From a virus (taxonomy: Duplodnaviria > Caudoviricetes), in the IMG/VR virus record IMGVR_UViG_3300024283_000014, positions 1,885-65,884 of that record: a stretch of 64,000 bases of DNA. One strand, given 5' to 3'. Each line of letters starts with the position of its first letter. The stretch's first letter is position 1. A program made the translations under genes and the position numbers. The notes under the pieces are model-generated. The model was not told the DNA's origin. It did no database searches and saw only the letters and a program-made list of their open reading frames with translations. This document shows positions 589 to 61,555 of the stretch, one piece after another.

Positions 589-608
589 CCTCGCTTAAAA
601 CGGGGTTA
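589..608 (+). repeat. dispersed motif A copy (CCTCGC-N3-RAACGGGGT)
   Basis: cctcgcttaaaacggggtta; its complement supplies the RBS of the 584 ORF. Confidence 0.9.
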
Positions 609-849
609 GTGGTACGTTGATGGTTAACAACCGCGAATTTTTTTGCTGCCGTTTTTGCAGGTTCGCTGCCCGTTTAAAATGCCCTTTGCCGCGCTCCTGC
701 TGGCCTGTGGCGCATCGCCAATTGCCCGGTAGTGGTCAGGTGCCACTTTGCTGCCCGATGCCTCTGGCGACCTAGTAAAATGTTTTTCCTCACACCTACC
801 ACGTAAGTTGTTGAAAATAAAGGGTCGCTAAAAATTCGACACGAATGTC

Positions 850-869
850 TGACCCCGTTTTGTGCGAGG
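850..869 (-). repeat. dispersed motif A copy
   Basis: tgaccccgttttgtgcgagg. Confidence 0.9.
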
Positions 870-1001
870 AATAAAGGCCAATGGTTTCTGAGGCCATTGG
901 CCTAGGCTACGCAAGGGACAATGCATGTATTACCAGTTCGCTTGCGAGTAGCACTAACGGGCACATAGTCACCTACATGCCCGATGCTGCTACCGGGGGA
1001 G

Positions 1002-1457
1002 TTACGCTTTCTTGCCTACCTTGAGGGACATGATCTCAAAGAGTTGCTCTTCGCTCACTTTGAAACCGTTAGCCTCTGCCACGCCCTTGAGCGTAGCATA
1101 CTTGATTGCGCCTTGCACATCTCCCGCAGCGGTCAATCGTGCGCTTTCCGCTGTGAGAACGGCAATATCCGCTGGCCCGACTTTGAACGTGCGATTTTCG
1201 TCCTTGCTGCCTGCCTTGTTGCCATTCGGCTTGCCATCGCTCAACAAGTCGCGGTGTTCCTCGGCATACAGCGTGATCTCATCGGACACTTTCAGCAATC
1301 GTTCCCATTGCTCACGGAACAGAGTTACTGGAAACCTCTGCAATCCGTAGACGCTGATTCCGCCCTTTTCCCCGATGCCGATCATGAGTGTCTCATCGGT
1401 TGCCATAGGTGCGGCCTTCAACCTAGGGACTGACTTAGTTACGTTATTGTCTGCCAT
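1002..1457 (-). CDS. conserved phage hypothetical protein
   Basis: 151 aa; GGISVYGLQRFPVTLFREQWERLL resembles a recurrent uncharacterised phage family; RBS present. Confidence 0.7.
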   Translation of the reverse strand: MADNNVTKSVPRLKAAPMATDETLMIGIGEKGGISVYGLQRFPVTLFREQWERLLKVSDEITLYAEEHRDLLSDGKPNGNKAGSKDENRTFKVGPADIAVLTAESARLTAAGDVQGAIKYATLKGVAEANGFKVSEEQLFEIMSLKVGKKA

Positions 1458-1700
1458 TTCGTTACTTCTCCTTGGCCCTAATTGGGCATCAAACCCCTAA
1501 GCGTAAGTGGCTTGATGCTGAACTAGTCCAAGGTGTTGCTCAAGTTGTCAAATAGCCTGTAAGTCCTTTGCCTGCTATAACTTGCCTCATGCAGTCGCAC
1601 TTGCTAGTGCAAACACCGTGCCATCGCGCTAAGTCCTTTGTTTTCAACGATTGGCCACTAAGTTGCTGATAACAAAGGGTGTAAAAACCTCCGGTAATTG

Positions 1701-1716
1701 TTACACGATCGTGTAA
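1701..1716. promoter_or_regulatory. perfect 16-bp palindrome inside a larger inverted repeat
   Basis: TTACACGATCGTGTAA, flanked by GTGTAAAAA (1679-1687) and TTTTTACAC (1717-1725). Confidence 0.5.
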
Positions 1717-1924
1717 TTTTTACACACCGGGCAGTTTCGCGCGCAAGATCAAGGGTTACCATAGGTTATAGTGGCTGGGACGAGGTTTAAGCTTATCGCT
1801 TTGAGGTGGCCATTAGTTACCACCACCCCCTCGGATTTACAATTTTTAAAATTTTTATAATATCTAATAAATAAATATGGCCTATTTTTATATAGGCCAT
1901 AGAAAATAAACAAAATTACAATAA

Positions 1925-2155
1925 TTACCGAGGATCATTCCAAGGATTGTCATCCGGGGCATTTCCTACTTTTACTTCAATTTGATTTTGAAGGGCTGCG
2001 GCCACATCTCGTTCAGTAGTTCGACGAAATCTTTGGCCTGAATAGTCTTCTTTTGCTTGCGCTTTGAAGATTGCAAAGACATCCGGGTGTTTCATTTTAA
2101 CCCAAGTTCTACAAAGTGTTGCTTCTCGATTACGAATTGATGCTTCTAAAGCCAT
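1925..2155 (-). CDS. hypothetical protein
   Basis: 76 aa, AAGGAG RBS, downstream of promoter motif at 2174-2203. Confidence 0.65.
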   Translation of the reverse strand: MALEASIRNREATLCRTWVKMKHPDVFAIFKAQAKEDYSGQRFRRTTERDVAAALQNQIEVKVGNAPDDNPWNDPR

Positions 2156-2173
2156 AATGAGTCTCCTTACTAG

Positions 2174-2203
2174 TTTAGACCATTAGAATATAGATTTTAT
2201 TAC
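2174..2203 (-). promoter_or_regulatory. putative phage ECF-sigma promoter
   Basis: GTAATAA-N16-GTCTAAA on the - strand. Confidence 0.75.
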
Positions 2204-2337
2204 ATAAAATATTTACATACGTAACGTCTCTTTCTCTACCCCCTATATAACCAAAAAATAGTAGTAGTAAGAGAGAGAGACATTAGAGAGATACTAAACA
2301 TATATACTTACTTAAAACAAATTATTTTCACATTCCT

Positions 2338-2367
2338 GTAATAAAATTCGATTTTCGCTGGTCTAAA
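2338..2367 (+). promoter_or_regulatory. putative phage ECF-sigma promoter (terminase/late operon)
   Basis: GTAATAA-N16-GTCTAAA, ending 19 bp before the TerS ATG. Confidence 0.75.
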
Positions 2368-2386
2368 ATAGTGTAACCTGTGTCCT

Positions 2387-2872
2387 ATGAGCAAAGGCCC
2401 GTGGAAACCCTTATATTGCCCAGCGTGGTTTGTCCAAGCCGCCGAGGTCATGGTACGCACAAATTGCAGTTTGAAGGCAGCCGCCTTGGAGATAGGTCAT
2501 CCACTCGATCCAGATGAGGCAGATAAGGTTTCGAGGCGGCGAGATTTTCAAGAAATACTTCGGGTCGAGAAGAACAAGTTCTATAGTAGCGTAGCAAACG
2601 ATCCCACGAGGACGAAATCAGTCGTAATTGGACAAATGTTTACATTAGCCGATAGGCTGATTACCGATGGGGAGTTCGAGAAGGCAGCCGGAGTTTTAGA
2701 TAAACTTGCTAAACTAGAGGGATGGAATGGAAACGAATCAAACATCAACATATTCAGTGGCCTTACAGCTAGAGACATTGCTGAAGCTAAAGAAAGACTC
2801 GCAAACTTTGGCAAACAGTCTAAACGCGATAATCTCGGAACTGATCTTCCAAAACAAACTTTGGCCAACTGA
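2387..2872 (+). CDS. terS: putative terminase small subunit
   Basis: 161 aa helical protein with an N-terminal HTH-like segment, directly upstream of TerL. Confidence 0.6.
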   Translation: MSKGPWKPLYCPAWFVQAAEVMVRTNCSLKAAALEIGHPLDPDEADKVSRRRDFQEILRVEKNKFYSSVANDPTRTKSVVIGQMFTLADRLITDGEFEKAAGVLDKLAKLEGWNGNESNINIFSGLTARDIAEAKERLANFGKQSKRDNLGTDLPKQTLAN

Positions 2873-2943
2873 AGGCGAAGCACAGTTGCAAGAGCTGGAA
2901 AACTACATTACAGCCGAAGATATCCTAAGCGGGAAAGTTGTTA

Positions 2944-4461
2944 ATGGCTAAATCCGATTTTGCTCTTGAACAATTGAAGCGATTTGATAGTTCAGAGCAA
3001 TTGGCTATCCTTGAAGCTCTTGAAGACAAACGTCGCAAAGAGAACTTCATTAAGTATTGGGAACCGCAGGAACAGCAAAAACCTCACTTCAAAGAATTCA
3101 CCAATGATATTAAGATTTTTGGTATCCTTGGTGGAAACCGCAGTGGCAAGACGGAAGAGGGAGTGTTTATAGATGTCGTTTGGGCACTCGGGAAAAAGTA
3201 CTTTGAAGGTGAACCAGTCTACGAATACATCAAAGACCTTCCAATACCAGACCCCCCAAACAATATCTGGATTGTGGGCCTTGACTATTCTCTACTCAAA
3301 AACGTTATTTGGAACGAAAAACTACGCCAAGGACGAAATCACCCCGCCTTTCTCCCCAAAGACCCTGAAGTTATTAAGAAAGTTGTCGATGGGGAATTTC
3401 AGGTGTATTTCTCCAACGGCTCGATTATTACTGGAAAATCAGCAGACGCCGGAAGAGACAAATTCCAAGGCGCCAGTATAGACCTAGTACACATTGATGA
3501 GGAATGTGAAGCAGATGTCTTCGATGAATGCTATCAAAGAACGGCTGATTGCGCAGGAAAGATTCTTTTAACCTTAACACCACTTGCAGACATTGCCTCT
3601 GGAGTTAAGACCCCGTGGGTCTTCAACCTCTATGAGGATATGGTTGCGGGGCAAAAAGACATAAAGTTTGTAAAACTAAATGTTTTGCACAACCCCTATG
3701 TCCCAGAAGTAGAAAAAAGCAAGCTTCTGGATAAATGGGCTGGAAACTTTGAAGAAGCAGCTAGACTCTACGGGGACTTCATACAACGATCAGGACTGGT
3801 ATATCCGCTCTGGAAGCGAGATTTACACCTTATCGACCCTATTAAAATCCCTCGTGAATGGCGTAGGATCGTCTCTATCGACCCCGCTGCTACTGGCACG
3901 ACAGCCGCTATCTGGGCCGCAGTTGAACCCGGAAGCAATAATCTATATCTCTACAGGGAATATTATAACTCTAATGCCATCGTCAGCGATCACGCTAAAA
4001 ACCTCCTTGCATTAAATGGAAGTGATCCAATAGACAATTGGCTACTTGATCCAAAGTGGGCGCAACAACGAAATGCTGAAACACATAAGACAGGGCTACA
4101 ACTTTACAGGGACAACAATATCCCCGTCCGGCCAGCGAACGTTAATTATGAGGATTACGGACTTAATGCTAGCAGGGAGTATATCGCTGCTAATCTTGAT
4201 AAGTCCTCCCGCCACCCGAAAGTTTTCGTGTTTCGTGATCTCAAGAATTTTACCTTCGAGATCGAACACTACGTATGGGACTTTTTTCAACGAGGAGATC
4301 AAAAGGGATTATCAAAGGATAAACCACTCAAACGTAACGACCATTTGATGAATGCCTTCCAGTATCTTTGTTGCATGCAACCCCGAGGCCGCAAATCAGG
4401 AGCCTACATAAGAGATGAAGAAAGTACAAAAAGATATGCAAATCTCAATTCCTACACATAA
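2944..4461 (+). CDS. terL: terminase large subunit
   Basis: Walker A GGNRSGKT, Walker B VHIDEE, RNase H-like IVSIDPA and C-terminal DHLMNA; ATG at 2944 preferred over 2938. Confidence 0.95.
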   Translation: MAKSDFALEQLKRFDSSEQLAILEALEDKRRKENFIKYWEPQEQQKPHFKEFTNDIKIFGILGGNRSGKTEEGVFIDVVWALGKKYFEGEPVYEYIKDLPIPDPPNNIWIVGLDYSLLKNVIWNEKLRQGRNHPAFLPKDPEVIKKVVDGEFQVYFSNGSIITGKSADAGRDKFQGASIDLVHIDEECEADVFDECYQRTADCAGKILLTLTPLADIASGVKTPWVFNLYEDMVAGQKDIKFVKLNVLHNPYVPEVEKSKLLDKWAGNFEEAARLYGDFIQRSGLVYPLWKRDLHLIDPIKIPREWRRIVSIDPAATGTTAAIWAAVEPGSNNLYLYREYYNSNAIVSDHAKNLLALNGSDPIDNWLLDPKWAQQRNAETHKTGLQLYRDNNIPVRPANVNYEDYGLNASREYIAANLDKSSRHPKVFVFRDLKNFTFEIEHYVWDFFQRGDQKGLSKDKPLKRNDHLMNAFQYLCCMQPRGRKSGAYIRDEESTKRYANLNSYT

Positions 4462-4618
4462 TCCTAGTGTTTGTCCTAATTGCGGGCATTGCCCGACTTG
4501 TGGACGACAAGATGCTTTGCCATACAATCCTTGGCGGAATCAACCGTATTGGGTTTATCAACCTACTTATACAGTAGGCGATTTCCCTAACAACAATACA
4601 TACGAAGTTAATTGTTAA
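4415..4618 (+). CDS. small Cys-rich protein (CPNCGHCPTCG)
   Basis: 67 aa with paired CxxC; overlaps the terL end. Confidence 0.55.
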   Translation: MKKVQKDMQISIPTHNPSVCPNCGHCPTCGRQDALPYNPWRNQPYWVYQPTYTVGDFPNNNTYEVNC

Positions 4619-4621
4619 TAT

Positions 4622-4641
4622 CCTCGCAAAGAACGGGGTCA
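4622..4641 (+). repeat. dispersed motif A copy
   Basis: cctcgcaaagaacggggtca, 3 bp after a stop codon. Confidence 0.9.
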
Positions 4642-4658
4642 ACACTCCAGGAGATAAC

Positions 4659-4778
4659 ATGCATTTTCTAGTGGCATTTGGATTAGGTTTCGCAGTAGGT
4701 GGGTCAGCAGTAGGTTATTTTTCATATAACTATGGCAAGAAGGCAGCCGCCGCTTTTGCTGCTCTAAAGAAAGCCTAA
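4659..4778 (+). CDS. 39-aa single-pass membrane protein
   Basis: MHFLVAFGLGFAVGGSAVGYFSYNYGKKAAAAFAALKKA; GGAG RBS; below the track cutoff. Confidence 0.6.
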   Translation: MHFLVAFGLGFAVGGSAVGYFSYNYGKKAAAAFAALKKA

Positions 4779-4957
4779 TGCGCGCTCAAGAAATTCTTAA
4801 CCGAGGAATTCAGAAAACCGAATACAAGGACAAGACTTTCTCTAAAACAGGGAAACCAGATTTTCAACCGGAAGAACCGGAAATTTTAACAATGAACCCG
4901 AAAGGGCCATATTCGAGGCCACGTACGAAAGCCTCCACCAATAATTCGTACACATAG
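4778..4957 (+). CDS. 59-aa hypothetical protein
   Basis: TAATG coupling to the upstream gene; hand translation MRAQEILNRG...NNSYT. Confidence 0.55.
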   Translation: MRAQEILNRGIQKTEYKDKTFSKTGKPDFQPEEPEILTMNPKGPYSRPRTKASTNNSYT

Positions 4958-4980
4958 CAAAAACTGAAAGGACAATATAA

Positions 4981-5358
4981 ATGGCTAATACAGTAAACGC
5001 TACGTGGGCAACTAGTGGCCCCGCATTTACAAATCAGGTTGTAGCTTTCGGAGGCAGAGACGCCGCCGAACTCGCTTATCATGGTGTAGCTAGCTTCACT
5101 GGTGATAACGCAACTGCTACTGTTACTTTGAATTGGATTGATGGAACTCAGACTCCCTTCTTCACACAGGGCAATCCTCCGACTGCTGTTGCTCCGTTTG
5201 CAGTGTTTGTTGGCCCGACCAACACCGCTGCTGCTAACGCAGTAGTTGTGCAGAATGTCAGTTCTATTTCATCCACAGGTTGTGTACTAACTCTTAGTGC
5301 AAATGCCCCTGCAGTTGCTATTAAGATTCCATTCATTGTATTCGCATACGCTTCTTAA
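4981..5358 (+). CDS. beta-rich protein, possible virion decoration protein
   Basis: 125 aa, A/T/V-rich; AGGA RBS. Confidence 0.6.
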   Translation: MANTVNATWATSGPAFTNQVVAFGGRDAAELAYHGVASFTGDNATATVTLNWIDGTQTPFFTQGNPPTAVAPFAVFVGPTNTAAANAVVVQNVSSISSTGCVLTLSANAPAVAIKIPFIVFAYAS

Positions 5359-5603
5359 TGGCGAATATGACTAATACCGGAAACGGAGGCTTAAAACCCC
5401 TCCGTTTCGGAAACATAAGGGGGCTTATGGATATGCATTGCCAAGGCCAACATGAAATTTATGTGGCCGAAGTTCTATATGTAGAGGCAGAGGGCAAACT
5501 AGTAGTAGTTACAGTTTGTCGTCATTGTGACAATGTTCGTTTTCATGAACGCCAAGTTGCACAAGCACATCATAGCGGTGAACTCCTAAAACAAGGAAAA
5601 TAA
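5358..5603 (+). CDS. small His/Cys-containing protein
   Basis: HC...CRHC pattern; TAATG coupling. Confidence 0.65.
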   Translation: MANMTNTGNGGLKPLRFGNIRGLMDMHCQGQHEIYVAEVLYVEAEGKLVVVTVCRHCDNVRFHERQVAQAHHSGELLKQGK

Positions 5604-5604
5604 A

Positions 5605-6521: not shown

Positions 6522-6772
6522 TGCCTGAGAATATTGCAATCACGGCGGCTAAAAACATTGGAAGCAATGTCAAAGCTTCAGTACAAGATTGGACAACTAG
6601 TACTCTTGATACTGATCCTCCAACTATTCCAGTCGTAGGCCAAGAACATGCAATGCAGACTGCTGCTAGTCATAATGATATGCCAACTATTCAAAGTATG
6701 CTTGGTATGACTAGATACAAACCAGCAGTCGGCAGAGCCGATAAACACGAGTCTAATATCTCGAATCAATGA
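6521..6772 (+). CDS. mini-protein with RYxPxxGxAD[KR] motif
   Basis: RYKPAVGRADKHESN; coupled start/stop. Confidence 0.7.
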   Translation: MPENIAITAAKNIGSNVKASVQDWTTSTLDTDPPTIPVVGQEHAMQTAASHNDMPTIQSMLGMTRYKPAVGRADKHESNISNQ

Positions 6773-7478: not shown

Positions 7479-7481
7479 TTT

Positions 7482-7691: not shown

Positions 7692-7726
7692 ATTAACCCT
7701 TGCATCTATTCAATTAAGGAGTCTTT

Positions 7727-8995: not shown

Positions 8996-8997
8996 GT

Positions 8998-9091: not shown

Positions 9092-9111
9092 TAACCCCGT
9101 TCTAAGCGAGG
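9092..9111 (-). repeat. dispersed motif A copy
   Basis: taaccccgttctaagcgagg; GCGAGGA end lies at RBS distance from ATG 9125. Confidence 0.9.
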
Positions 9112-9462: not shown

Positions 9463-9482
9463 CCTCGCATAGAACGGGGTCA
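9463..9482 (+). repeat. dispersed motif A copy
   Basis: cctcgcatagaacggggtca, 2 bp after a stop codon. Confidence 0.9.
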
Positions 9483-17248: not shown

Positions 17249-17268
17249 CCTCGCATAAAACGGGGTAA
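17249..17268 (+). repeat. dispersed motif A copy
   Basis: cctcgcataaaacggggtaa, preceded by a long hairpin at 17197-17250. Confidence 0.9.
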
Positions 17269-20804: not shown

Positions 20805-21375
20805 GCACGGGAACACGACGTTTGATAGCAAAGTGGATGCAATGCTTGATCCGCCTCTTACTAGAAATGGTGTAGAACGAATCAAACGAACTGTAACTTT
20901 CCTTCGGGAAAGTGGCTATAAATTTAGTAGAATTGTAACCTCGCCCTTGCAAAGGGCCATGAAAGTAGCCCAACTTCTTTCAGACGGTAACATAAAGATT
21001 TACCCAGATGATGCTGCAAAGCCTTGGAACCTCGGAGATTTAATGGGCCGAGAGACCCGAGCAGTCAAGCAGCAACTAGAATACCTCAAGAATTACCCGG
21101 ATATCAAAGCTCCTCATGGTGAAAGCTATCGAAACTTTCACCAACGATGGAGTGATTTATTGCATCGCATAATGCAATATGCCGAAGCTTACAGCACAGA
21201 AGCTTTGGTGGTTGTTACCCACTCAAGAAACATCGATGCTTTGTATTCGATTATTCGGGGTGCTCCGGTAGGGGATACTCAAAATGACGCACCAGAAGGC
21301 AGTGTAACGAAACTCTCCTCGTTTAAAACGGGGTCAGGCGATTGGTCTTATGAACGTATATGGGAAGGTAAATAA
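20779..21375 (+). CDS. histidine phosphatase (phosphoglycerate mutase-like)
   Basis: LVRHGNT, SPLQRA, HGES, VVTHS. Confidence 0.9.
   Translation: MQPTILLVRHGNTTFDSKVDAMLDPPLTRNGVERIKRTVTFLRESGYKFSRIVTSPLQRAMKVAQLLSDGNIKIYPDDAAKPWNLGDLMGRETRAVKQQLEYLKNYPDIKAPHGESYRNFHQRWSDLLHRIMQYAEAYSTEALVVVTHSRNIDALYSIIRGAPVGDTQNDAPEGSVTKLSSFKTGSGDWSYERIWEGK
21317..21336 (+). repeat. dispersed motif A copy (1 mismatch, intragenic)
   Basis: cctcgtttaaaacggggtca. Confidence 0.75.
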
Positions 21376-27173: not shown

Positions 27174-27377
27174 ATGAATACGGAAGATTTTCAAACTCAT
27201 GTTGTAGATGCGTTAGCTCGGCTTGATACCAAAGTAACTGATTTAGTTGGTAATGGTCAGCCTGGGCGTGTTTCAAGACTAGAAGAAAAAGTCGATACTA
27301 TAAATCGTTGGCGCTGGGTAATAGCAGGAGTCGTCTTGTCTTTATCTGCGTTAGTTCATTTCATATTTAGATACTAA
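27174..27377 (+). CDS. coiled-coil protein with C-terminal TM helix (holin-like)
   Basis: GNGQPGRVSRLE followed by RWRWVIAGVVLSLSALV. Confidence 0.65.
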   Translation: MNTEDFQTHVVDALARLDTKVTDLVGNGQPGRVSRLEEKVDTINRWRWVIAGVVLSLSALVHFIFRY

Positions 27378-27394
27378 CCCCGTTCTAAGCGAGG
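27375..27394 (-). repeat. dispersed motif A copy
   Basis: taaccccgttctaagcgagg, continuous with the GAGGAG RBS of 27401. Confidence 0.9.
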
Positions 27395-28420: not shown

Positions 28421-29698
28421 ATGGCTGATAATCCCTACGCACCCGGTTTCATGAATCCAAATGCGTCTCGCGCAGGTCTATTTGATTTGCGCATGATGTC
28501 TGCTGCTAATAGAATGGAAACCCCTTTTGAACACGTCCGAAGTGGGCGAGGTCGCTCTATTGCCGAAAGCGGAATGTTCGGTAATAACATGACTAACGAA
28601 CCTGATTACAGTCAATTTACATTTGACCCACAGGCTCACGCCGCTGCAACTCAAGCTCTCGCTCCGTATGGCTTAAGTCCCTTGGAAGCTTCTCAAGTTC
28701 AACAAAATCAGATATTGCCTAACAGTGGATTTTTTGGTGCGCACCCTCGCCTGTCGGCTGCAATCGAAGGCGGATTATTCGGTGGCGCAGCCGCGCATGG
28801 CGGGGACACAGCAGGCGAATCTATTCAAGGTGCTCTTGCCGGAATGATCGGCGGAAGACAATTAAAACAAAACCTTTATAACCAACAGTTTGCTAAACCC
28901 TTCGAGGCGGCTGGTATGCTTGAACGCCTTGAAGATATGCGACAAAAGCGTGATCTTCAAGCGGCTGAAATTGAACATTATCGGATAATGAACCAGAAAC
29001 TTGGTCGTCCGGATCATGATGTTCATGCGATGCCTATTAACAAAAACGATCAATCTCTTTATCAGTATGACAATACTACTGGTGAAGGGAAATTCATTCC
29101 TAACCCGGATTTCGATCCGGCCTTGGTTCGTTCTCAGCACACTGCCTCGAACCTCGATATAGGTACTCGGGAACAGTTGATGATAATGGGCGTGCAAGAC
29201 CCCGGTCAAGCCTCTCCTCCTCAGATCGCCTTGGCTAACAAACGCGCTCAAGCACAAGCAGTGGAACGTGGATCAGCTATCGCTGGTGGTAGTGCTAATG
29301 CTAGAATTCCTTCGCAGAACTACTCTGATGCTCGACGGGAACATGACAAGCGAATTGATGGCTTGTCTCAGCAGATGTTAAAGAACAATGACCCGGCTCA
29401 TCAGCAATGGGTTGATAATCAGATTCTTGACAAGCATATGGCTGATGCTATTAAGAACCCAGACGATAAAACTCGTCCCAAGGACTTCCTATTCAGTGTC
29501 GATCCTAAAGAACGCCAAGCCTACATGGATCAATACAACCAACGTATTCAGTCTCAGATCGAAGAAGAAACACAGCGGTTTGGCCAAGCTTGGCCTCAAT
29601 CGATAGAAGCTCCGCCTAGCCCCAAACGTTCCTCGCAGAAAACGGGGTCAGGAGCTAAAGCAAAAACCTACGATCCGACTACGGGACAACTTCGATAA
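28421..29698 (+). CDS. putative internal virion / ejection protein
   Basis: 425 aa, helical, C-terminal YDPTTGQL. Confidence 0.65.
   Translation: MADNPYAPGFMNPNASRAGLFDLRMMSAANRMETPFEHVRSGRGRSIAESGMFGNNMTNEPDYSQFTFDPQAHAAATQALAPYGLSPLEASQVQQNQILPNSGFFGAHPRLSAAIEGGLFGGAAAHGGDTAGESIQGALAGMIGGRQLKQNLYNQQFAKPFEAAGMLERLEDMRQKRDLQAAEIEHYRIMNQKLGRPDHDVHAMPINKNDQSLYQYDNTTGEGKFIPNPDFDPALVRSQHTASNLDIGTREQLMIMGVQDPGQASPPQIALANKRAQAQAVERGSAIAGGSANARIPSQNYSDARREHDKRIDGLSQQMLKNNDPAHQQWVDNQILDKHMADAIKNPDDKTRPKDFLFSVDPKERQAYMDQYNQRIQSQIEEETQRFGQAWPQSIEAPPSPKRSSQKTGSGAKAKTYDPTTGQLR
29631..29650 (+). repeat. dispersed motif A copy (intragenic, near the 3' end)
   Basis: cctcgcagaaaacggggtca. Confidence 0.9.
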
Positions 29699-32600
29699 AT
29701 GCCTCCACAAGATCAATATCGACAAATTAACGGGCCTGATGGCCCGATTAATTTTCCTGCTAATATGAGTGATGGCGATGTTACTCAGGCGATGCAGCGG
29801 CTTTATCCGTCTAAAACATCTGTACCTGAAGCTACTATAGGGGTACACAATCCTTCTAAGATGGAACAATTAGAAGATGCGATTCCTGTTCTCCGTCATA
29901 TTAGTGATATCTTTCATGGGGGCAAAGGCTCCATGCGGCCTGAGGATACTACTCAATTGATGTATCCTGAGCGCGTATTCTCTCCGATGGAACAGGCTGC
30001 GCATCCTGTACGAACAGGATTTGATGAGTTTGCTGGTAGTTTAACCTCGCCTGATAATATTTTACTTATGCACGGCTTTGGCGCTATGGGGATAGCTGCT
30101 GGTCGTCTTGGACGAATTCTTCCTCGATTGGCTTCAGCGGCATTCGCCGGACAAATGGGTAAAGGCTCCTATGATGCTTTCCATGCTGCACATGAGAATT
30201 GGCAGCAATATAAAGCCACAGGCAATGAAGAATACAAAAACGAGGCTATGCGCCTTGGAACTCACAGCCTTCTAAATGGTGCAATGGCTATGATGTCAGG
30301 TGCTCATAGTGCTATGGGTGAACCTGCAATCAATAATAATGCAGCTGATCTGCCTAGTAAAGTAGGCCAATTTGCTAAATCAGAACCTCAGCCTGTTAAG
30401 CCTGCACTTAAACCTCAAGATATTATTACTCCAGTTGAGACACCTAAACCTTTGATTGTTGCCTCGCGCGCGCGCGAGAACTTGACATCTCCTCCTGAAT
30501 CTGGTATAATGGTAGTGAAAGGGGAGGAGAAACCCATGTTCACACCAAAAGATTTACGTCAAGCATTACCAACCCAGCAAGTTCCCAACTTGGGAACTCC
30601 GCCTAAAATTACGCCTAAACCAATCAGTATTGAACCAGAATCACGTCCGTTAGGCGAGTCTGAGATCATCTTTCAACGAGGACGCCGCTTACAAAGCCAA
30701 GGTTTATCTGAATCAGAAATTGCATTCAAGTTGATGCAAGAGTATCCGCATCGTGCAGATGAGATAGCTAATGCCTATAAAAAGACCCCGAGTTCCATCG
30801 TGGGGCGAGAAGCAACGCCCGGTTCGGAACCCATACAACCTAAAGAATCCATTCAAGCGACCACAGCCACCACGGGATCAGGAGAATCCGTTCTCGCCGC
30901 CCCGCGACCCTCGGTAGAGGATACCTCAAAACGATTGGGAACTCGTGATCCTCAACCTGCTGTTGATCCTTGGGCTAACCTCGCCAAAGATAAACAAGCA
31001 ATGGAGATGGCTGCGGCTGAACGGGATGCTGGTAAATTACCAGAGGGGATGTCCTACGTTCAACGTGCTCAACAGTTGAAAGAACAGTTGATGGCCGAAC
31101 CCCGTTCTGTGCGAGGAAGTTTACCAACAGTTGAGGTCTTTCAGCAACGGGTAACAGAGTTCCTTAAGCGTAATCCTAGCATGGCCGAAGGTACGGCTCG
31201 CCGGATGGTATCAGAACAGATCAGGAAAGAGCGAGGCTCACTTAGCTTCAAGCCATTGTCTAAGCCTGCACCTGTTCAAGGAACTCCTGTCCAGCAAACT
31301 TCTCTCGGGCAACTTACCGATAAGGTTGAATCTGCTCTGAAAGCCACACCGCCTGATGACAGTCGGATGCGAATTGCTGAGCGTCTGGATAAGACTCTTA
31401 CAGATGGCTGGGATAAGACTCAGTTGGCCTTGGGTCGAGTTGCTGCTCAAGCTGTAGCTTTGAAAGATATGTGGCTTCGTGAACCAGAAATGACTGATTA
31501 CAGATCATCGGTTGGACGATTCAGTGGAGCCTTAAATAGATCGGCTTGGGAACTTCGACAGTTCACTAAAGAAATAAAAAATAAACTTCCTGATGCTCAA
31601 CGTCGGGAAGCTATCACTAATTGGATTCAGGCCGGAGGAGACGATCAAATACTCGCAGATCGTGCTGGTCGTTCCAAGGGAATGCTTCGAGCAGGTTATG
31701 AAGCTGCTAGGAATTTAACTCCCGAAGAAAAGACTCTAGCTAAAATGATTGTGGAACATTTTGATAAACGACTCAAAGAAGCCATTGACATGGGTGTTCT
31801 TAAGAGTGGTTTGGAGAATTACGTTCCGCAGGTCTGGAAACCAAAAGATCAAACTAATGCTGTTAATTTCTTTAGTTCCCTGCATCGCAGTGGTTTGTTG
31901 AAGACTGATTTCAACTCCGCGAAACGTAGAATCTTTGATTCTTATTTTGAAGGAGAACAGGCGGGTCGAATTCCTGTTAACAAAGATATTGGATTCCTTT
32001 TGTCTTCTTGGGAGAAAGCTCTCAACCAAGCTGTTGCATCTCGTTCTTTTATCCGCGATTTGTCTTACGGATTAGCTAAAGACGGGCGTCCTATTGTTGC
32101 TCCTTCCGGTAAAGGTAAACCTGCCTTTGACGAGATTGATCCAGCAATAGGGGTATCAGGTCAAGAGAAACCCAATGCTTATTTCATCTACCCTAAAGCC
32201 GGGCCAGATGAAACCGGAGATTACAAAGCTCTCAATCATCCAGCCTTAACTAAATGGACTTGGGCAACTAAGGATGAAAATGGTGCGCCCATCTTCATGA
32301 AGGGTGATCTAAGAGTTCATCCCGATCATGCACAGACACTCGATAATGTTATCAATCGAGGGAAATGGGCTTCGGCTCATCCAGTCCAAACAGCGATTCT
32401 TAAGGGTCAATCTTTCTTTAAACAGACTTTGTTAGCAGCTTCGCCTTTCCACCAAATCCAAGAAGGTACTCACGCGATCTTCCATAAAGTCAATCCTTTT
32501 AATCCGGGCCAAATCGATTTAGCTAATCCTTCAATGACTAAGCTTTTAGATCACGGCCTCGTAATAGGAAATTTTGACCCTGTTGCTGCTTTTGAGGAAG

Positions 32601-33771: not shown

Positions 33772-34122
33772 TTATTTGTTGTATTTTCTGACTCGCACTC
33801 TCCTAGGCGACATACCAGCAAACGGGTTATAGCCAGCTTCGACCACACCCAACTCATCTAGTAGTTTGTAGAACGACAATCCGATATGCAACTTAACGGC
33901 AATAGTGTTATCACTATTGCCTTTCTTTTTTAGGTACTCACGATAAGCAGCTACATCGCTTCGGAAAATATCCCTAGGTTTCCTATCCGGCCCAAAGAAT
34001 TCCATTTGATGCGAGAATTCTTTTGCATATGCAACCCAAGTTCCTCGGCGTTGATTGTATCGCCATTCAAAAGGAAGTTGCAAATCTTTAAGACTTGGAT
34101 CAGGAGGAAGATCGAGGATCAT
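33772..34122 (-). CDS. stand-alone integrase N-terminal SAM-like (core-binding) domain protein
   Basis: SDVAAYREYLKKKGNSDNTIAVKL...FYKLL...NPF; no catalytic domain. Confidence 0.65.
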   Translation of the reverse strand: MILDLPPDPSLKDLQLPFEWRYNQRRGTWVAYAKEFSHQMEFFGPDRKPRDIFRSDVAAYREYLKKKGNSDNTIAVKLHIGLSFYKLLDELGVVEAGYNPFAGMSPRRVRVRKYNK

Positions 34123-38293: not shown

Positions 38294-38493
38294 TATCGTA
38301 ATCCCGGTTCCATGCAATCCGGGCAATCACATTCATATCTAGGTTTACGGGGATAATTTACAATTATGCTACTTTCCTTACCCCGTTCTTTGCGAGGAAG
38401 GTAACAACCTGCCTCTTGGCAATTATGTTGAGTCTTTTCTTTACTAATCTGGCCATTTAATTTCTGTTCTAACCATGTTAATATTCCTCGCAT
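38293..38493 (-). CDS. small Cys-rich hypothetical protein
   Basis: 66 aa; start uncertain. Confidence 0.45.
   Translation of the reverse strand: MRGILTWLEQKLNGQISKEKTQHNCQEAGCYLPRKERGKESSIIVNYPRKPRYECDCPDCMEPGLR
38378..38397 (-). repeat. dispersed motif A copy
   Basis: ttaccccgttctttgcgagg. Confidence 0.9.
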
Positions 38494-38505
38494 AAAACGG
38501 GGTCA
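38486..38505 (+). repeat. dispersed motif A copy
   Basis: cctcgcataaaacggggtca. Confidence 0.9.
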
Positions 38506-44909: not shown

Positions 44910-45115
44910 GAACGCCCTCCTAGCATTCCGTCTGACTTCCAACCATCTTTAACAGGCTGATTACCCCGTTCTACGCGAGGATAATTACAAGGTAAATCTA
45001 GTCTTGTTTTAGTCGCTCGCCCATCATTGGCTCCACATGCTACACAAACTTCATCATATAAACTAGAATCTGAATATCTTGTTTTATGACTAGGATGTAC
45101 CATTTTTCTCTCCAT
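44906..45115 (-). CDS. small Cys-containing hypothetical protein
   Basis: CVAC...C. Confidence 0.5.
   Translation of the reverse strand: MERKMVHPSHKTRYSDSSLYDEVCVACGANDGRATKTRLDLPCNYPRVERGNQPVKDGWKSDGMLGGRS
44961..44980 (-). repeat. dispersed motif A copy
   Basis: ttaccccgttctacgcgagg. Confidence 0.9.
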
Positions 45116-46044: not shown

Positions 46045-46064
46045 CCTCGCCTAGAACGGGGTCA
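46045..46064 (+). repeat. dispersed motif A copy
   Basis: cctcgcctagaacggggtca; complement supplies the RBS of 46037. Confidence 0.9.
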
Positions 46065-52995: not shown

Positions 52996-53304
52996 TCAAT
53001 GACCCCGTTTTTTGCGAGGAGATTGAATCCTTAATCCTCGACTTAACAGCCAAATTGGTCTACCATCCTCTTCGCTCTTGAACGTCGAAATCACCTGGAA
53101 GCCCTTTTTCAAGAAGGCGGCCTTGGCCTTGAGCTGATCCGAATTGACGGTGGCGAGATATTTATGCTTTCGATCAAGATCACGCAAGGAGTCTTGAAAA
53201 TATTGCCATTCGCTTTTGTAATTTTCTTTCTCCCAATCGTTGTCCCCTTCGTAATCATAGGGATGACTCTCCAACTCCGTTAATGCGCAACACCCGAGGC
53301 ACAT
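52996..53304 (-). CDS. GNAT-derived mini-protein (PGCC family)
   Basis: CLGCC...ATVNSDQ...FLKKGFQVISTFKS...GRPIWLL. Confidence 0.6.
   Translation of the reverse strand: MCLGCCALTELESHPYDYEGDNDWEKENYKSEWQYFQDSLRDLDRKHKYLATVNSDQLKAKAAFLKKGFQVISTFKSEEDGRPIWLLSRGLRIQSPRKKRGH
53000..53019 (-). repeat. dispersed motif A copy
   Basis: tgaccccgttttttgcgagg; encodes the last codons PRKKRGH. Confidence 0.9.
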
Positions 53305-54598: not shown

Positions 54599-54619
54599 CC
54601 TCGCCCTAAAACGGGGTAA
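54599..54619 (+). repeat. dispersed motif A copy (7-nt spacer variant)
   Basis: cctcgccctaaaacggggtaa. Confidence 0.8.
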
Positions 54620-56718: not shown

Positions 56719-58031
56719 TTTTTATCAAATTGCCAATTTCCTGCGATATCATGTGGATAAGGAATAACCGATTCCAGCCCGTTTTCAAATGCAAGTAATG
56801 CTTTCTTTGCTCCTGCGTCGATTGCCGACGGGGAATAAATACCCCACATCGACTTAACAATTCTTGTAAGCGGCGCAAGATTTTTCTTAATCAATTTTCG
56901 TGCGCCTTGCACATCGCAGCTATTGATTATATCTCTGACTTCTTTTTCATCTGCAAGCCAGCATAAATTGTAAAGACCTGATTCAGCGAATCGTACAGTT
57001 GCTCGCGCAAGGTCAAATACAAGCATGGTAATTGCCGGATGGCAGAGCCAGAAATTCGAGAGAACCCTGTATTCAATTCCGTGAGAAGGGAGCCGAAACT
57101 CTCCCGCACGACCATATGTGCGGCGTCTTTCGGGGTTATCAATTTCTGCTGCAAGGCTAACTCCAACGACCCCCAAAACGCCGTCGAGTGCTCGCACAAT
57201 TTGTTCAATTGCTGGAGCCGTAAAACCTCGTGTGAATCCAAGGTGGATATGGCCTCCGGCGCAGCGATATTTGTATTGTCTGGCATCTGGTATTCCATCT
57301 CCCGGATCATCGTAGATGTTGTAACTTCGTGAACAACGAAATTGAATGTGTTTGTCGTCAGCGTTCTTCAGAACGCTATCTGGAAGTTCAATGGTGTTTT
57401 TGATAGTCAATTTGGCTTGTGGGTCTTTCTTTTGTGCAAATGCAAGAATCGTCTTAAGTCCAATTCTCGTCCCATCGTGCAAGGTTTCGAGACAATTTTT
57501 TGCCCACGGCGCAAATTCAGCCTGTGCACCATCCCAATAAATAGGAACTTTTAAAGGAGAAGCATTAGAATCTACAACCCCCCATGATGCGCCTTCAACT
57601 TCGCTTTCTCCGCGTGGATGACGTTCTAATAGCCATCTCTTCGCTTGTAATCTTGAAGTTTCTTCATCGGGTAAAAATTCCCATGCCGGAAAGATTGAAC
57701 CATCTCCGTGTTCCACGAATATCTCAGGATCACAGCCGCTGCTCATTGATTTGCTAGGAAGAGGAAATTTAGCTGCAAGGAAGGCATCTGCAACGAGGGT
57801 TTGAAGCTTTTTATCTTCGACCAATTCAAATTCAGTGGTATTTACTTGATCAGGCAACGAAGTGGGAATTACTTCTTCGCCACTCACATTAAAGATAGCA
57901 GGTAGAATCGTCTTCTGGTCTGCGCTGTATTCCATTCCTGCCATTACTCCCAAGGCATTTAATCCGTATGCCCTCGGGAGTTTTATTACAGACCCCGGCG
58001 TTATTTCCTTTAAACTACATAGCTTCGACAT
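56652..58031 (-). CDS. phiEco32-like COOH-NH2 ligase type 2 (paralog 3)
   Basis: SGCDPEIF, DGAQAEF, AGGHIHLG, YGRAGEFR..SHGIEYRVLSNFW. Confidence 0.9.
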   Translation of the reverse strand: MSKLCSLKEITPGSVIKLPRAYGLNALGVMAGMEYSADQKTILPAIFNVSGEEVIPTSLPDQVNTTEFELVEDKKLQTLVADAFLAAKFPLPSKSMSSGCDPEIFVEHGDGSIFPAWEFLPDEETSRLQAKRWLLERHPRGESEVEGASWGVVDSNASPLKVPIYWDGAQAEFAPWAKNCLETLHDGTRIGLKTILAFAQKKDPQAKLTIKNTIELPDSVLKNADDKHIQFRCSRSYNIYDDPGDGIPDARQYKYRCAGGHIHLGFTRGFTAPAIEQIVRALDGVLGVVGVSLAAEIDNPERRRTYGRAGEFRLPSHGIEYRVLSNFWLCHPAITMLVFDLARATVRFAESGLYNLCWLADEKEVRDIINSCDVQGARKLIKKNLAPLTRIVKSMWGIYSPSAIDAGAKKALLAFENGLESVIPYPHDIAGNWQFDKNWLSHCRNVDASWLHLTSVRNG

Positions 58032-59160: not shown

Positions 59161-59346
59161 TCATGTTGTGCGCTTTCCAGCCCGCCTTCTAACTTCGGCG
59201 GATTGTTCTTCAACCTTGCGCGAGAACTCATCCGAAAGAGGATAGTCCAAATCCATACCTTGCCATGTTGCAATGAATAGTTCTTCGTGGCAGTTTGGAC
59301 ACGTGCCGTCCAATTCGAGCCGAGTTCCGCAATCTTCGCAGATCAT
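59161..59346 (-). CDS. small zinc-ribbon protein
   Basis: MICEDCG...CPNC. Confidence 0.65.
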   Translation of the reverse strand: MICEDCGTRLELDGTCPNCHEELFIATWQGMDLDYPLSDEFSRKVEEQSAEVRRRAGKRTT

Positions 59347-59369
59347 GTTGTGCGCTCTCCAGCCTCACA

Positions 59370-59537
59370 TCAGTAAGGCTTCAGGCTTTTAGTGTGGTAC
59401 CAGTGTTCGTCCGTCACGAATTTTACCACGTAACCACCAGCACGTTTATCGGTTACGGTACCGACACACTCGCAAGATTCTCCCCGCGTTCCCGTGCGAG
59501 GCGCTAATACTTTGTCACCAATGTTGAATGTTTTCAT
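59370..59537 (-). CDS. 55-aa SH3-like protein
   Basis: MKTFNIGDKV...VGTVT...YVVKF...HWYHTKSLKPY; hand translated. Confidence 0.6.
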   Translation of the reverse strand: MKTFNIGDKVLAPRTGTRGESCECVGTVTDKRAGGYVVKFVTDEHWYHTKSLKPY

Positions 59538-60010
59538 GCTGGGCGCTCTCCAGCCAGCCAGAAGGTAAATTCAGTTATTTTGGCTGATACTTTTTCAAAG
59601 CACGCTATGTTTTGGCGCAAAGCATCTTCTAGTTCCGTTATTCGCGCTTTCAGTCCCTGTACCTGCGCTTTCGTTGCCGCATGTGATTCTATTTCCTGAA
59701 TCAAGATTTTCTTCTCGTCGAGCAAACACGACTGGTCGCCGAAACGCAGATATTGGAGCAGCAGACCATCAAAAAAGCTTGTATATCGTCTGCTGGCTGG
59801 TTGCAATACACCATCACGGACTTGGAGAGCGAATGTCGCACCAGCAACCAATAATCTACACCGCTCACACCTGGGGTTGATTATGGCTTTTCCGCACCCA
59901 ATTTCCTTGTCGTGTCCCGGTATTCCGATCTGGTGTTCTGATTGCGAAAGGAATTGTTCAAATAAATCAAACAATGAAGCCTCGGACTTGGCTAGTTGGT
60001 GTTTATTCAT
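59534..60010 (-). CDS. hypothetical coiled-coil protein
   Basis: 158 aa, coupled. Confidence 0.6.
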   Translation of the reverse strand: MNKHQLAKSEASLFDLFEQFLSQSEHQIGIPGHDKEIGCGKAIINPRCERCRLLVAGATFALQVRDGVLQPASRRYTSFFDGLLLQYLRFGDQSCLLDEKKILIQEIESHAATKAQVQGLKARITELEDALRQNIACFEKVSAKITEFTFWLAGERPA

Positions 60011-60714
60011 TTTCGTTCTACTCCTAGAAGCAGCTCGGCCTCGGCACGGGTCAAAGATTTAATCACCCATCGTAGAAAGAAGCCTTCAACATCCTTCATG
60101 GTTTCTTCGATCTTATCGAGTTGTTCTGAATCTGCTACAAACGTTCGTTCGGAAGGCTCTCCATTTTCATCTGTATAAGGGTAACCAAATATCCATTCAC
60201 CGCGCTGCAACGCTTCTTTCAGCTCCCATACCTGCGCTTCCAAATGTTGATTCGATTCAATTGCCCGTTTCCAGCCATCTACAAGACGTTCTATGCGAAA
60301 CGTAAGCAGACGATCTGCGAAGTAGGTTGAAGGAATCAACTTTACCAGTTCCGCCTCTCGCCTTCGCAGGGCTTCGCGGGCGTAGGCTTCGATTCGACTG
60401 CGGACTTCACTCTTCGGCTTCGGCCCGACCTTGCAGAAATCGCGCACCATCTCGTCAAGTAATTGTTCCGCCGTCATCACTGCTGGCTGCGCTGCGGGAG
60501 GGACGGACTCCGAAAGTAATTTCTTCGCCCAGTCAACCCAGTACGGATTTCCTCCAGCAAGGTTGTTGATGTGCTTGTATTCGTCATTCCACTCAATTGC
60601 ACACCGTAAACATTGAGCTATTTCGCTCTCGTGAATCTCGCGGATATGAGAGCTTGACTGTTCTGTCGTCAGCTCCCCGCCCCCGCTACCTACCGTCTTG
60701 ATTAGATGTTTCAT
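60007..60714 (-). CDS. mosaic hypothetical protein
   Basis: 235 aa, ATGA coupling. Confidence 0.6.
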   Translation of the reverse strand: MKHLIKTVGSGGGELTTEQSSSHIREIHESEIAQCLRCAIEWNDEYKHINNLAGGNPYWVDWAKKLLSESVPPAAQPAVMTAEQLLDEMVRDFCKVGPKPKSEVRSRIEAYAREALRRREAELVKLIPSTYFADRLLTFRIERLVDGWKRAIESNQHLEAQVWELKEALQRGEWIFGYPYTDENGEPSERTFVADSEQLDKIEETMKDVEGFFLRWVIKSLTRAEAELLLGVERK

Positions 60715-60892
60715 AAATTTTCATTTCTCGTGCTGCTTTCTTACGATTGGCTGGAGATAATACCTTCCATCTCTCTTGTTGATTTCTAATAGCTTCACAG
60801 GTAGTACATACACTGTAAGGATGACTAAAACACGTACAACGTCCACCGAACGGATGTAGATTGAACTTATCCAAGGTAGGAGTATTGCTCAT
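60686..60892 (-). CDS. small Cys/His protein
   Basis: CTC..H..CTTC. Confidence 0.5.
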   Translation of the reverse strand: MSNTPTLDKFNLHPFGGRCTCFSHPYSVCTTCEAIRNQQERWKVLSPANRKKAAREMKIYETSNQDGR

Positions 60893-61326
60893 TGCGCTCC
60901 GGCACCCTGCTTAGCAAATCCCCGTCCGCAATAGGAGCAAAATGATGGCTCTCTAACCGAACCTGTTTCGGCTCCGCATGAACACCGCCACGCTTTCATC
61001 TCTTTGGTAAAGCCATCTGCAACTCGTTCTGGGGTCATCGCCGTTTGTACTTTTGCTCCGGGACGGTCAGCCACGATTGAATCCTGAGACGCGCCGATCA
61101 CCGAGTTTCCCGTGGCCTTTGGTACGCTCGATAGGTCTTGGTTCGGCTCTAATGTCCGCGTCTCGGAAACTTTTGGGGGGTCAGCCACGCTCGGCTTAAA
61201 AACTACACAGGCCTCCCCATTATGGGCCGTAGCCGCATTTTCTCGATGTGACAAACCCGACAACTGACACGTTCCCTTACGACGAGGATCAGCCACGCTG
61301 GATTCGCGGGATTGGTTAGTCATCAC
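60889..61326 (-). CDS. hypothetical protein with internal VAD(P/R) repeats and C-terminal zinc ribbon
   Basis: SVADP, SVADP, IVADR; CSC...CSYC. Confidence 0.55.
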   Translation of the reverse strand: MMTNQSRESSVADPRRKGTCQLSGLSHRENAATAHNGEACVVFKPSVADPPKVSETRTLEPNQDLSSVPKATGNSVIGASQDSIVADRPGAKVQTAMTPERVADGFTKEMKAWRCSCGAETGSVREPSFCSYCGRGFAKQGAGAQ

Positions 61327-61526
61327 TGGTTCTGACCCCGTGATACTACATCACCCGTGGTTAAGTCCACGATTTCAAACCATTCTGTTCGAGCCTCAGC
61401 TTCCGCTTCATTCACGGTATCGAAACTACCTCGGAAATCCGACCAGCCGCCACTTGGGTAATAAATATAATTCCCAAATAACGCGTAGCGATTCATTCGC
61501 ACAGATTCACACGATTGGTTAGCCAT
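61323..61526 (-). CDS. hypothetical protein
   Basis: Start MANQ at 61526; flanked by a 32-bp direct repeat. Confidence 0.55.
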   Translation of the reverse strand: MANQSCESVRMNRYALFGNYIYYPSGGWSDFRGSFDTVNEAEAEARTEWFEIVDLTTGDVVSRGQNQ

Positions 61527-61535
61527 TATTGGTTC

Positions 61536-61555
61536 TGACCCCGTTCTATGCGAGG
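61536..61555 (-). repeat. dispersed motif A copy
   Basis: tgaccccgttctatgcgagg. Confidence 0.9.

Follow-up and report, generated by a model that had tools for sequence, protein, structure and literature searches.

A dispersed 22-bp word at gene junctions in a family of soil phages and its possible reading on duplex DNA

Introduction

What would keep one short word nearly invariant at 17 places in a phage genome, in both orientations and both between and inside genes? The question is raised by an uncultured soil tailed phage known from IMG/VR virus record IMGVR_UViG_3300024283_000014 (65,884 bp, rated complete), of which we analysed the 64,000 nucleotides that make up bases 1885-65884, hereafter the window. 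The word, CCTCGC-N3-RAACGGGGT in its core, is asymmetric, and no published element with this consensus was found in the literature. Dispersed phage repeats without an assigned function are nevertheless a known kind, as in the Cluster O mycobacteriophages (PMC4351075). An earlier, sequence-only reading of the window had listed the copies and proposed a protein-binding or recombination site or, alternatively, an RNA switch.

Here we describe the copies, their placement and their counterparts in related phages and bacteria, and weigh the explanations that have been or can be offered. We tentatively favour, with somewhat less than even confidence, the explanation that the word is a family-specific recognition site on duplex DNA for a putative sequence-specific protein. 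The phage genome under study is referred to as G000 and its relatives as G001, G006-G010, G416 and G418; L numbers denote contigs or fragments. A copy is called sense when the word reads CCTCGC-to-GGGGT along transcription and antisense when it reads the other way.

Results

The word and its copies

The window contains 16 matches to CCTCGCNNNRAACGGGGT (CCTCGC-N3-RAACGGGGT) with at most one mismatch, compared with none in 100 dinucleotide-preserving shuffles, which shows that the reported dispersed motif is real. A 17th copy at 54599-54617 (+), CCTCGC-CCTA-AAACGGGGT, has a 4-nt spacer and not the 7-nt spacer originally given for it. There is in addition a weak, decayed relic copy near 42572 (about 42550-42579, +), and no further copy in the first 1884 bp of the record, before the window. 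Both orientations are used, as had been described, with 8 copies on the + strand and 9 on the - strand; the + coordinates of the earlier list stand, while those on the - strand were 2 nt too low and are corrected in Table 1. Copies inside open reading frames (ORFs), at 21317, 29631, 31099, 44963 and 53002, are indeed read in different frames. Alignment of 41 distinct copies from the phage and its relatives gives a full conserved word of 22 bp, T-CCTCGC-NNA-R-AACGGGGT-YAG, so that the core of the earlier consensus holds and conservation extends beyond it. Outside the word, the same alignment shows nothing conserved for 40 bp in either direction.

Table 1. Copies of the word, the candidate reader and landmark genes, with positions in the window
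Feature	Position	Strand or arm	Remarks
Copy	589..606	+	Antisense to leftward gene 3-584; GCGAGG 4 nt before its ATG
Copy	852..869	-	Sense to leftward genes; inverted pair with 589, 263 bp away
Copy	4622..4639	+	Downstream of large terminase gene; ATG at 4660 is 21 nt on
Copy	9094..9111	-	Left arm of 387-bp bracket; Shine-Dalgarno of gene 9125-9460
Copy	9463..9480	+	Right arm of bracket; starts 2 nt past 9125-9460 stop, ends 13 nt before gene 9494
Copy	17249..17266	+	Between portal gene and gene 17281
Copy, 1 mismatch (CCTCGT)	21317..21334	+	Within 3' end of gene 20779-21375
Copy	27377..27394	-	Overlapped by stop of gene 27174-27377; GCGAGG 6 nt before ATG at 27401
Copy	29631..29648	+	Within 3' end of gene 28421-29698; 50 nt before 1342-aa ORF
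Copy	31099..31116	-	Within 1342-aa ORF, read as EPRSVRG
Copy	38380..38397	-	One arm of 124-bp inverted pair
Copy	38486..38503	+	Other arm of 124-bp inverted pair
Copy	44963..44980	-	Sense to leftward genes; closes bracket 44963-46062
Copy	46045..46062	+	Overlapped by stop of gene 46062-46283; GCGAGG 7 nt before ATG at 46037
Copy	53002..53019	-	In 3' end of gene 52996-53304; 9 nt before ATG at 52992
Copy, 4-nt spacer	54599..54617	+	GCGAGG 4 nt before in-frame ATG at 54594 of GNAT gene
Copy	61538..61555	-	11 nt before ATG at 61526
Candidate reader	33772..34122	-	116 aa, stand-alone core-binding (SAM-like) domain of tyrosine recombinase
+ arm	about 980-33727	+	Terminase, portal, capsid, 1342-aa ORF
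Large terminase gene	2938-4461	+ arm	
Portal gene	15094-17193	+ arm	
Major capsid protein gene	18703-19722	+ arm	
1342-aa ORF	29699-33727	+ arm	Large tail-end ORF, end of structural arm
DNA polymerase A gene	38966-41233	- arm	
ECF-type sigma factor gene	47250-47768	- arm	

Placement at gene junctions

Copies of the word are concentrated at the edges of genes. The motif centre lies no more than 40 nt from an ORF boundary in 11 of the 17 copies, against a random rate of 0.18 (p = 2e-5), and placement is similar in the relatives G010, G001 and G418. Sense copies typically begin 2 nt past a stop codon and end 9-20 nt before the next start, and the CCTCGC-first form is found at or just past gene 3' ends, 9-51 nt before the next start, at 4622, 9463, 17249, 21317, 29631, 53002 and 61538. 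In antisense copies the preceding stop codon overlaps TRA-CCCC, and the GCGAGG side falls 4-13 nt before the next start, as seen for genes 584 (-), 9125, 27401 and 46037 (-) and for the in-frame ATG at 54594 (-); judged by its sequence, GCGAGG can serve as the Shine-Dalgarno sequence of the gene that follows. The sequence-only reading had assigned ribosome-binding sites to these same five starts and the complementary form to gene 3' ends, and both assignments agree with the measured distances. We propose that copies have been fitted into stop-to-start spacers, where they would double as stop codon (TRA-CCCC) and Shine-Dalgarno sequence (GCGAGG), because a genome that is 90% coding leaves hardly any other room for a fixed word of 18-22 bp.

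The earlier observations that orientation is independent of transcription and mostly alternates were also borne out. There are 10 sense and 7 antisense copies in the phage, and 37 against 25 over five genomes. Neighbouring copies lie on alternate strands in 13 of 16 cases (permutation p = 0.02) and in 64 of 78 across six genomes, with permutation p values of 0.02, 0.05, 0.005 and 0.002 in the four larger sets. Neighbours arranged as ACCCCG..GCGAGG, a segment and CCTCGC..CGGGGT are close, mostly 0.1-2.3 kb apart, whereas those in the opposite arrangement are separated by ~5 kb. The basic unit is thus a pair of inverted copies enclosing a short segment; at 9094-9480, for instance, the pair encloses gene 9125-9460 (111 aa). 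One or two copies are also found within the large ORF in all five genomes checked (G000, G010, G001, G006 and G007). A role for the motif as a module boundary in this ORF was considered and rejected, since its positions do not match the edges of similarity.

Copies that precede genes at short distances could be compact promoters for a phage-directed RNA polymerase or a late factor, read from CCTCGC towards GGGGT, with the antisense copies driving antisense RNAs. The information content and copy number resemble those of T7-group phage promoters as generally known, sense copies stand 9-50 nt before major late blocks (post-terminase, scaffold/capsid and the large ORF), and the + arm has only a single copy, at 2338, of the ECF-type motif described below. 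We nevertheless consider a promoter highly improbable: searches revealed neither an RNA polymerase of the phage nor a second sigma factor, about 40% of the copies point against genes, one junction is flipped in the relative G010, and there is no A/T-rich element for melting beyond the centre of the word.

The sigma factor of the phage, which had been suggested as a possible reader of the word, is accounted for by a separate motif. GTAATAA-N16-GGTCTAA occurs six times, at 2203 (-), 2338 (+), 38293 (-), 42507 (-), 43810 (-) and 45663 (-), always co-directional with the downstream genes; four copies lie on the replication arm, and the other two form a divergent pair before the terminase genes. 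From its sequence and placement this motif looks like the promoter set of the ECF-type sigma factor, and we have rejected the word as a sigma-factor promoter. A scan of positions 1-20000 showed no sigma-70-like promoter or intrinsic terminator at the copies from 589 to 17249.

Lineage-specific words at fixed junctions

No near relative of this phage is present among 50,697 deposited phage records, where the best portal match is 23% identical; a large family of relatives is found in IMG/VR and soil metagenomes. The sequence-only reading had called for a search of related phages, and the same word was recovered from close relatives, with 14 copies in G001, 15 in G010 and others in the fragments L127, L126 and L331-L337. 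Other lineages of the family use different words in a comparable way: CCTACCTAAAAAGGGGT occurs 9 times in G007 and CACTACCCCAAAAACGGGT 7 times in G006, while the 22 copies in G418, CCAGGC-N4-AACCCCTC, have the layout CCnnGC-N4-AAC-5 in common with the present word. We detected no comparable dispersed word in the complete relatives G008 and G009. G008 (L303-L306; 65.7 kb), which is without a long dispersed motif, contains the 7-mer CCTACAG 32 times on both strands, either a recognition word or a codon effect. In the distant relative G418 (L355-L358; e.g. 42601-42721, 44577-44742 and 49554-49662), several copies are paired as perfect inverted repeats of 22 bp, with 60-110 bp of unrelated sequence between them; their predicted folds reach -65 to -80 kcal/mol, and the genome also encodes a full-length tyrosine recombinase. 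A telomere-like array at the ends of G010 (L311:1-110 and the end of L314) was rejected, as the tandem GACCCC/GACCTC/GACCAC hexamers are by eye coding, (Asp-Pro/Leu/His)n, and the 'direct terminal repeat' of that genome is probably coding low-complexity sequence at which the assembly closed the circle.

Where the portal gene meets the homologue of gene 17281, each lineage has its own word, and the post-terminase copy (4622) retains its place and orientation in G001, G010 and L331-L337. Fixed junctions despite lineage-specific words indicate that the sites are old and that the word has been altered in place and in concert. Such concerted change at kept positions fits what co-evolution of a reader with its sites would give; under the mechanism that we propose, the word would evolve together with the phage family, and inverted pairs at cistron junctions would bracket one or a few genes. 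The word is also under purifying selection, because in relatives at ~73% nucleotide identity the core is retained at orthologous junctions while the flanks have diverged.

Gene content around the copies is less stable. Similarity to relatives often restarts exactly at the 5' edge of the motif (e.g. at 17249), with extra genes adjoining. The left arm and the gene 9125 unit are missing from G001, and a 660-bp block with an extra arm precedes the 17249 copy in L127, G010 and L135. The homologue of gene 20779 has both arms in G010, the left one alone in G001 and the right one alone in G000. Before gene 9494, G000 and G001 have a sense copy and G010 has an antisense one.

Cassettes gained and lost beside the word, and similarity that resumes at its edge, are what would be expected if the word were a module linker or a relic of miniature mobile DNA without any regulatory role, located at cassette edges and spread by recombination between co-infecting relatives (Sak4 and an exonuclease are encoded) or by a transposase acting in trans. 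Inverted copies also resemble terminal inverted repeats, and a bracket of 417 bp with identical arms exists in a bacterial metagenome-assembled genome (MAG; see below). However, bracket interiors are mutually unrelated, the bacterial bracket has only one partial second copy, Pfam searches revealed no transposase, and no target-site duplication is evident at the few bracket flanks viewed by eye. Core genes such as the 20779 homologue gain and lose arms in place, and the positions kept across lineages with changed words point to in-place change under selection and not to re-insertion, which makes this origin improbable in our view.

Constraint on DNA or RNA

The 41 aligned copies, 25 sense and 16 antisense, show one and the same conservation profile in both classes, in both flanks and at the loop-like A positions as well. 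Positions equally conserved in the two classes are T at -1, A at 9, AAC, GGGGT, A at +2 and G at +3. Because conservation is blind to transcriptional orientation while the two classes give different RNAs, the constraint would most simply act on duplex DNA. The flipped orientation before gene 9494, together with equal conservation irrespective of orientation, fits a reader of duplex DNA.

An RNA element would act differently. In a polycistronic mRNA, an upstream ACCCCGUUYNNNGCGAGG could pair with a downstream CCUCGCNNARAACGGGGU, and the duplex would shut off the genes within the bracket, mask a ribosome-binding site or make an RNase III site, timing or limiting expression. Read along transcription, most brackets do begin with the Shine-Dalgarno form and end with the complementary one, the positions of copies follow stop and start codons closely, and the duplexes between bracket partners are predicted to be strong, at -29 to -37 kcal/mol. 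In G418, 4 of the 8 close pairs form perfectly inverted repeats of 22 bp that flank 60-110 nt and have identical centres, against 6% expected by chance; these matched centres may keep both the pairing and the recombination readings alive for that lineage. In the clade of the present phage, however, the variable bases of partners do not agree: partners are identical at the variable bases in none of the 6 pairs in G000 and in only 1 of 18 over G000, G010 and G001, and many copies, most clearly in G001, are singletons without a partner on the same transcript. The hairpin that a single copy can form (CCUCG / 7-nt loop / CGGGG) has 5 bp including a G-U pair, is weak at about -5 kcal/mol, and is lost in the lineage variants, which fold at -2 to -4 kcal/mol. 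A stem alone would need no single fixed sequence at all sites, and the two forms of RNA differ, yet their conservation is alike. No match to Rfam 15 at the gathering score was found in the window or in seven bacterial loci bearing the word, and a tRNA-like arm was rejected since by eye the loop fits neither a T-loop nor an anticodon loop.

We regard the RNA element as unlikely. Between the two possibilities raised by the sequence-only reading, equal conservation, the flipped G010 junction and the recombinase-derived gene described next favour a site at the DNA level, and the RNA switch is disfavoured by the absence of matching among six partner pairs and by the many copies without a same-transcript partner.

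A recombinase-derived candidate reader

If the word is recognized as duplex DNA by a protein, its most likely reader would be the product of 33772-34122 (Table 1), a protein with a weak match to the N-terminal, SAM-like domain found in phage integrases. In G006 and G007 its homologue is a full-length tyrosine recombinase (288-289 aa), and only in these two was PF00589 found (3e-21 and 7e-20). The homologues of G416 and G418, also full-length, have 282-288 aa; where catalytic residues would be expected they show, by eye, Arg, Lys, Arg, His and Tyr. In G006 and G007 the first catalytic Arg is seemingly replaced (also by eye, in the alignment). In G000, G010 and G001 the protein stops cleanly after the core-binding domain; in G000, without a catalytic domain, it would bind without recombining. 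Adjacency of the gene to the large tail-end ORF was seen in 7 of the 9 relatives examined, with only the presence of a homologue recorded for G008 and G009. Where both genes were mapped (G001, G006, G007 and G010), the recombinase gene directly follows the large ORF on the same strand, and in G000 it faces the end of this ORF from the opposite strand. The word itself may be divided into two short arms of G/C, CCTCG and CGGGG, with 7 variable, A-rich bp between them; arms around a variable centre are the general layout of a recombinase core site.

We infer that a protein reads the word and that its binding would mark or insulate gene blocks, by acting as a roadblock or by looping or bridging paired copies; the sites may be binding-only descendants of recombinase core sites. 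In a more specific form of this idea, a tyrosine recombinase and its core sites would have been turned into a system of genome-wide marking, in which the remaining DNA-binding domain docks on ~15-20 inverted-pair sites and pairs them, protein-bridged loops of one gene or a small block set expression, and relatives with the whole enzyme may still recombine. We think this elaboration improbable.

The same gene invites the more direct proposal that site-specific recombination is active, as in shufflons and invertons, with a tyrosine recombinase that is phage-encoded in the relatives and host-encoded here inverting segments, and with the variable centre picking the partners. Asymmetric sites of ~19-22 bp with a variable centre between conserved arms and alternating orientation suit such a system, as do the location of the recombinase gene beside a large ORF that holds inverted copies in several relatives, the catalytic residues of the G416 and G418 homologues and the G418 pairs with identical centres. 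The remaining observations make it quite improbable. G000 retains the core-binding domain only, with no other recombinase found by Pfam among about 110 ORFs, its six bracket pairs never have identical centres, and the apparent replacement of the first Arg in G006 and G007 also speaks against active enzymes. When the intragenic pairs were inverted in silico, the large ORF was cut short in all three genomes tried, which led us to reject a coding inverton, and inversion between sites genome-wide would scramble operons. Comparison of the relatives with one another revealed no inverted bracket, and contig L330, which is 99% identical, is collinear with G000 at each of the six copies it includes, with one change, in a variable base.

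Several points weigh against a recognition site read by this protein. Ordinary regulator sites are seldom as nearly identical as all of these copies are, and a plain binding-site model does not predict the strong alternation or the copies in the large ORF. The candidate reader is linked to the word circumstantially, through co-occurrence and the general architecture of recombinase sites only, and the effect of the predicted binding is speculative. G008 and G009 keep the homologue and have no detected dispersed motif, and the search gave no clean phylogenetic profile for a reader gene. In the Acidobacteriota MAG with eight copies there is no specific homologue, only generic Xer-like matches of the kind also seen in control genomes. 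A host-encoded reader, or one carried on other mobile DNA, is an alternative to the 33772-34122 protein. Another clade-restricted candidate may be the basic Zn-ribbon-like protein of 73 aa encoded at 46062-46283, which is found only in genomes with this exact word.

Occurrences in bacteria and a host lead

Searching TCCTCGCNNARAACGGGGTNA against 185,579 species genomes returned only single matches per stretch, mostly coding (peptide ILAENGV); MAGs of Acidobacteriota (Terriglobia) account for most of the non-coding matches that have the TTAG flank in full. The richest of the searched bacterial genomes, the Acidobacteriota MAG G014 (5.3 Mb), has eight exact copies in alternating orientation on one contig of 1.19 Mb (G014:C16:267255-768308; L315-L320), among them two that form a bracket of 417 bp, with arms that agree at the variable bases too; only one partial second copy of this bracket exists. 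The possibility, allowed for at the outset, that the word is a known high-copy host repeat does not agree with this maximum of eight, and a host repeat of the REP (repetitive extragenic palindromic) or uptake type was rejected since the matches are isolated and most are coding. No enrichment was found in 461 other sampled genomes of the class and family of G014, which have 0-1 copies, no more than a reversed-pattern control. A related prophage in the motif-bearing MAGs was sought and dismissed, with no capsid homologue found, as was a recombinase near the G014 motif cluster, where there is only a catalytic-domain fragment. Some of the G014 copies adjoin paralogous phosphoesterase genes and a gene for a pyrroloquinoline quinone (PQQ)-dependent dehydrogenase.

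In another Acidobacteriota MAG, a gene for a PEP-CTERM protein has a TTGACT-17-GATAAT promoter, and the word is located 35 bp upstream of that promoter; this distance from a canonical promoter is typical for a regulator site. Because one MAG carries eight exact copies, the matches suggest a host range in the Acidobacteriota.

The phage genome and other signals

Two convergent arms make up the phage genome. The 99%-identical metagenome contig L330 (Ga0247669_1000385) spans both ends of the record with ~79 extra bases (L330:5006-5086; window 63999-64000), and the genome is therefore circular or circularly permuted, with the record cut at an arbitrary point. Apart from the genes in Table 1, the - arm encodes a primase/helicase, Sak4, an exonuclease, three COOH-NH2 ligases, a glutamine amidotransferase and a GNAT protein. 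A winged-helix protein is encoded at 48517-48963. Pfam searches of about 110 ORFs gave no RNA polymerase, transposase, HNH nuclease or complete recombinase. We identified no repressor or lysogeny module in the phage genome, and this soil phage family is apparently lytic.

A dATP/dGTP diphosphohydrolase N-terminal domain (PF18909, 1e-24) is encoded at 34215-34793 (-), and the three ligases, of phiEco32 type, together with the glutamine amidotransferase map to 46262-47257, 49738-52322 and 56652-58031. This gene set suggests altered nucleotide pools or hypermodified DNA. L330 also differs from the window at 59703-59778 (genome 61587-61662), where 61-79 bp are in the opposite orientation and are followed by 96 bp not present here. 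The flipped stretch sits within ORF 59534-60010 with no motif flanking it, and it reflects either an assembly error or a genuine small inversion accompanied by a deletion.

A second dispersed element, present about seven times, is a 19-bp perfect palindrome, AGTTCCCAA-N-TTGGGAACT, at 7377, 19745, 30586/30592, 47069 and 63185/63191, plus two sites in the 1884 bp before the window. One copy directly follows the stop of the capsid gene, and another adjoins a strong TTGACA/TATAAT promoter. Such a palindrome probably serves a dimeric regulator as operator, or forms a hairpin.

Comparison with known systems

The sfx sites of the R64 shufflon are ~19 bp long and asymmetric, cluster in about 2 kb and invert alternative C-terminal exons through Rci. 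The present word shares with them its size of ~19 bp, its asymmetry, variable centre and alternation, and a recombinase gene that adjoins a tail/adhesin-type gene holding sites. Here, however, the sites are genome-wide, inversion breaks an ORF, the phage lacks the catalytic domain, and rearranged forms were not observed. REP and REPIN elements are similarly short intergenic words at gene ends, with inverted doublets and lineage-specific sequence, but REPs are strong palindromes with hundreds of host copies and a RAYT transposase, whereas the word has a weak hairpin, at most eight copies in any searched bacterium, and no RAYT-like gene found in the phage.

The start-associated sequences (SAS) and extended SAS (ESAS) of Cluster K mycobacteriophages are known to face the gene that they precede. 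Like the copies on the GCGAGG side here, they are words directly upstream of a start that include the ribosome-binding site. This co-orientation holds in our phage only for 584, 9125, 27401, 46037 and 54594, and more than half of the copies face away and follow stop codons.

Stoperators, present in 20-30 copies of 13-14 bp and bound by the immunity repressor of the phage, are oriented with transcription, which is part of their proposed mode of action. In Cluster A mycobacteriophages these sites for L5 gp71 are asymmetric, near-identical words, mostly in short intergenic spaces, that vary by sub-lineage and are read on DNA by a phage protein (PMC4351075). The word resembles them as a short asymmetric dispersed word with placement at junctions and variation between lineages. 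It differs in orientation, as the sequence-only reading had recognized: stoperators take one direction relative to transcription, while here 10 copies are sense and 7 antisense (37 against 25 over five genomes), 64 of 78 neighbours alternate, pairs form inverted brackets and an orthologous junction is flipped.

The 17-bp dyad repeat of Cluster O mycobacteriophages, TGTTCGGNNNCCGAACA, occurs in more than 30 copies and has no assigned function (PMC4351075). It is likewise dispersed (>30 compared with about 17 copies), with invariant arms around a variable centre, intergenic and intragenic positions and gene insertions flanked by copies, but it is a perfect palindrome and not tied to start codons, in contrast to the asymmetric word studied here, whose orientation pattern is informative. 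The localized nick sites of T5, phiKMV-like and tf/LUZ24-like phages are short words in 4-14 copies, all on one strand (PMC3517423). They too are specific multi-copy words whose consensus varies between related phages; the present copies, by contrast, are divided between strands (8 + and 9 -).

Of the dispersed words described from mycobacteriophages of Clusters A, K and O, a reader is known for the stoperators only. If a reader were found for the word described here, it would show how an uncultured family of soil phages partitions long operons and might document the conversion of a recombinase into a regulator; meanwhile the word provides a host lead to the Acidobacteriota. What this family adds is the layout of inverted-pair brackets at cistron junctions, the concerted change of the word at fixed positions and a plausible candidate reader derived from a recombinase. 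The word belongs to the kind of dispersed phage words of unknown or regulatory function, differs from each of the systems above in the features that define it, and is set apart by its bracket architecture.

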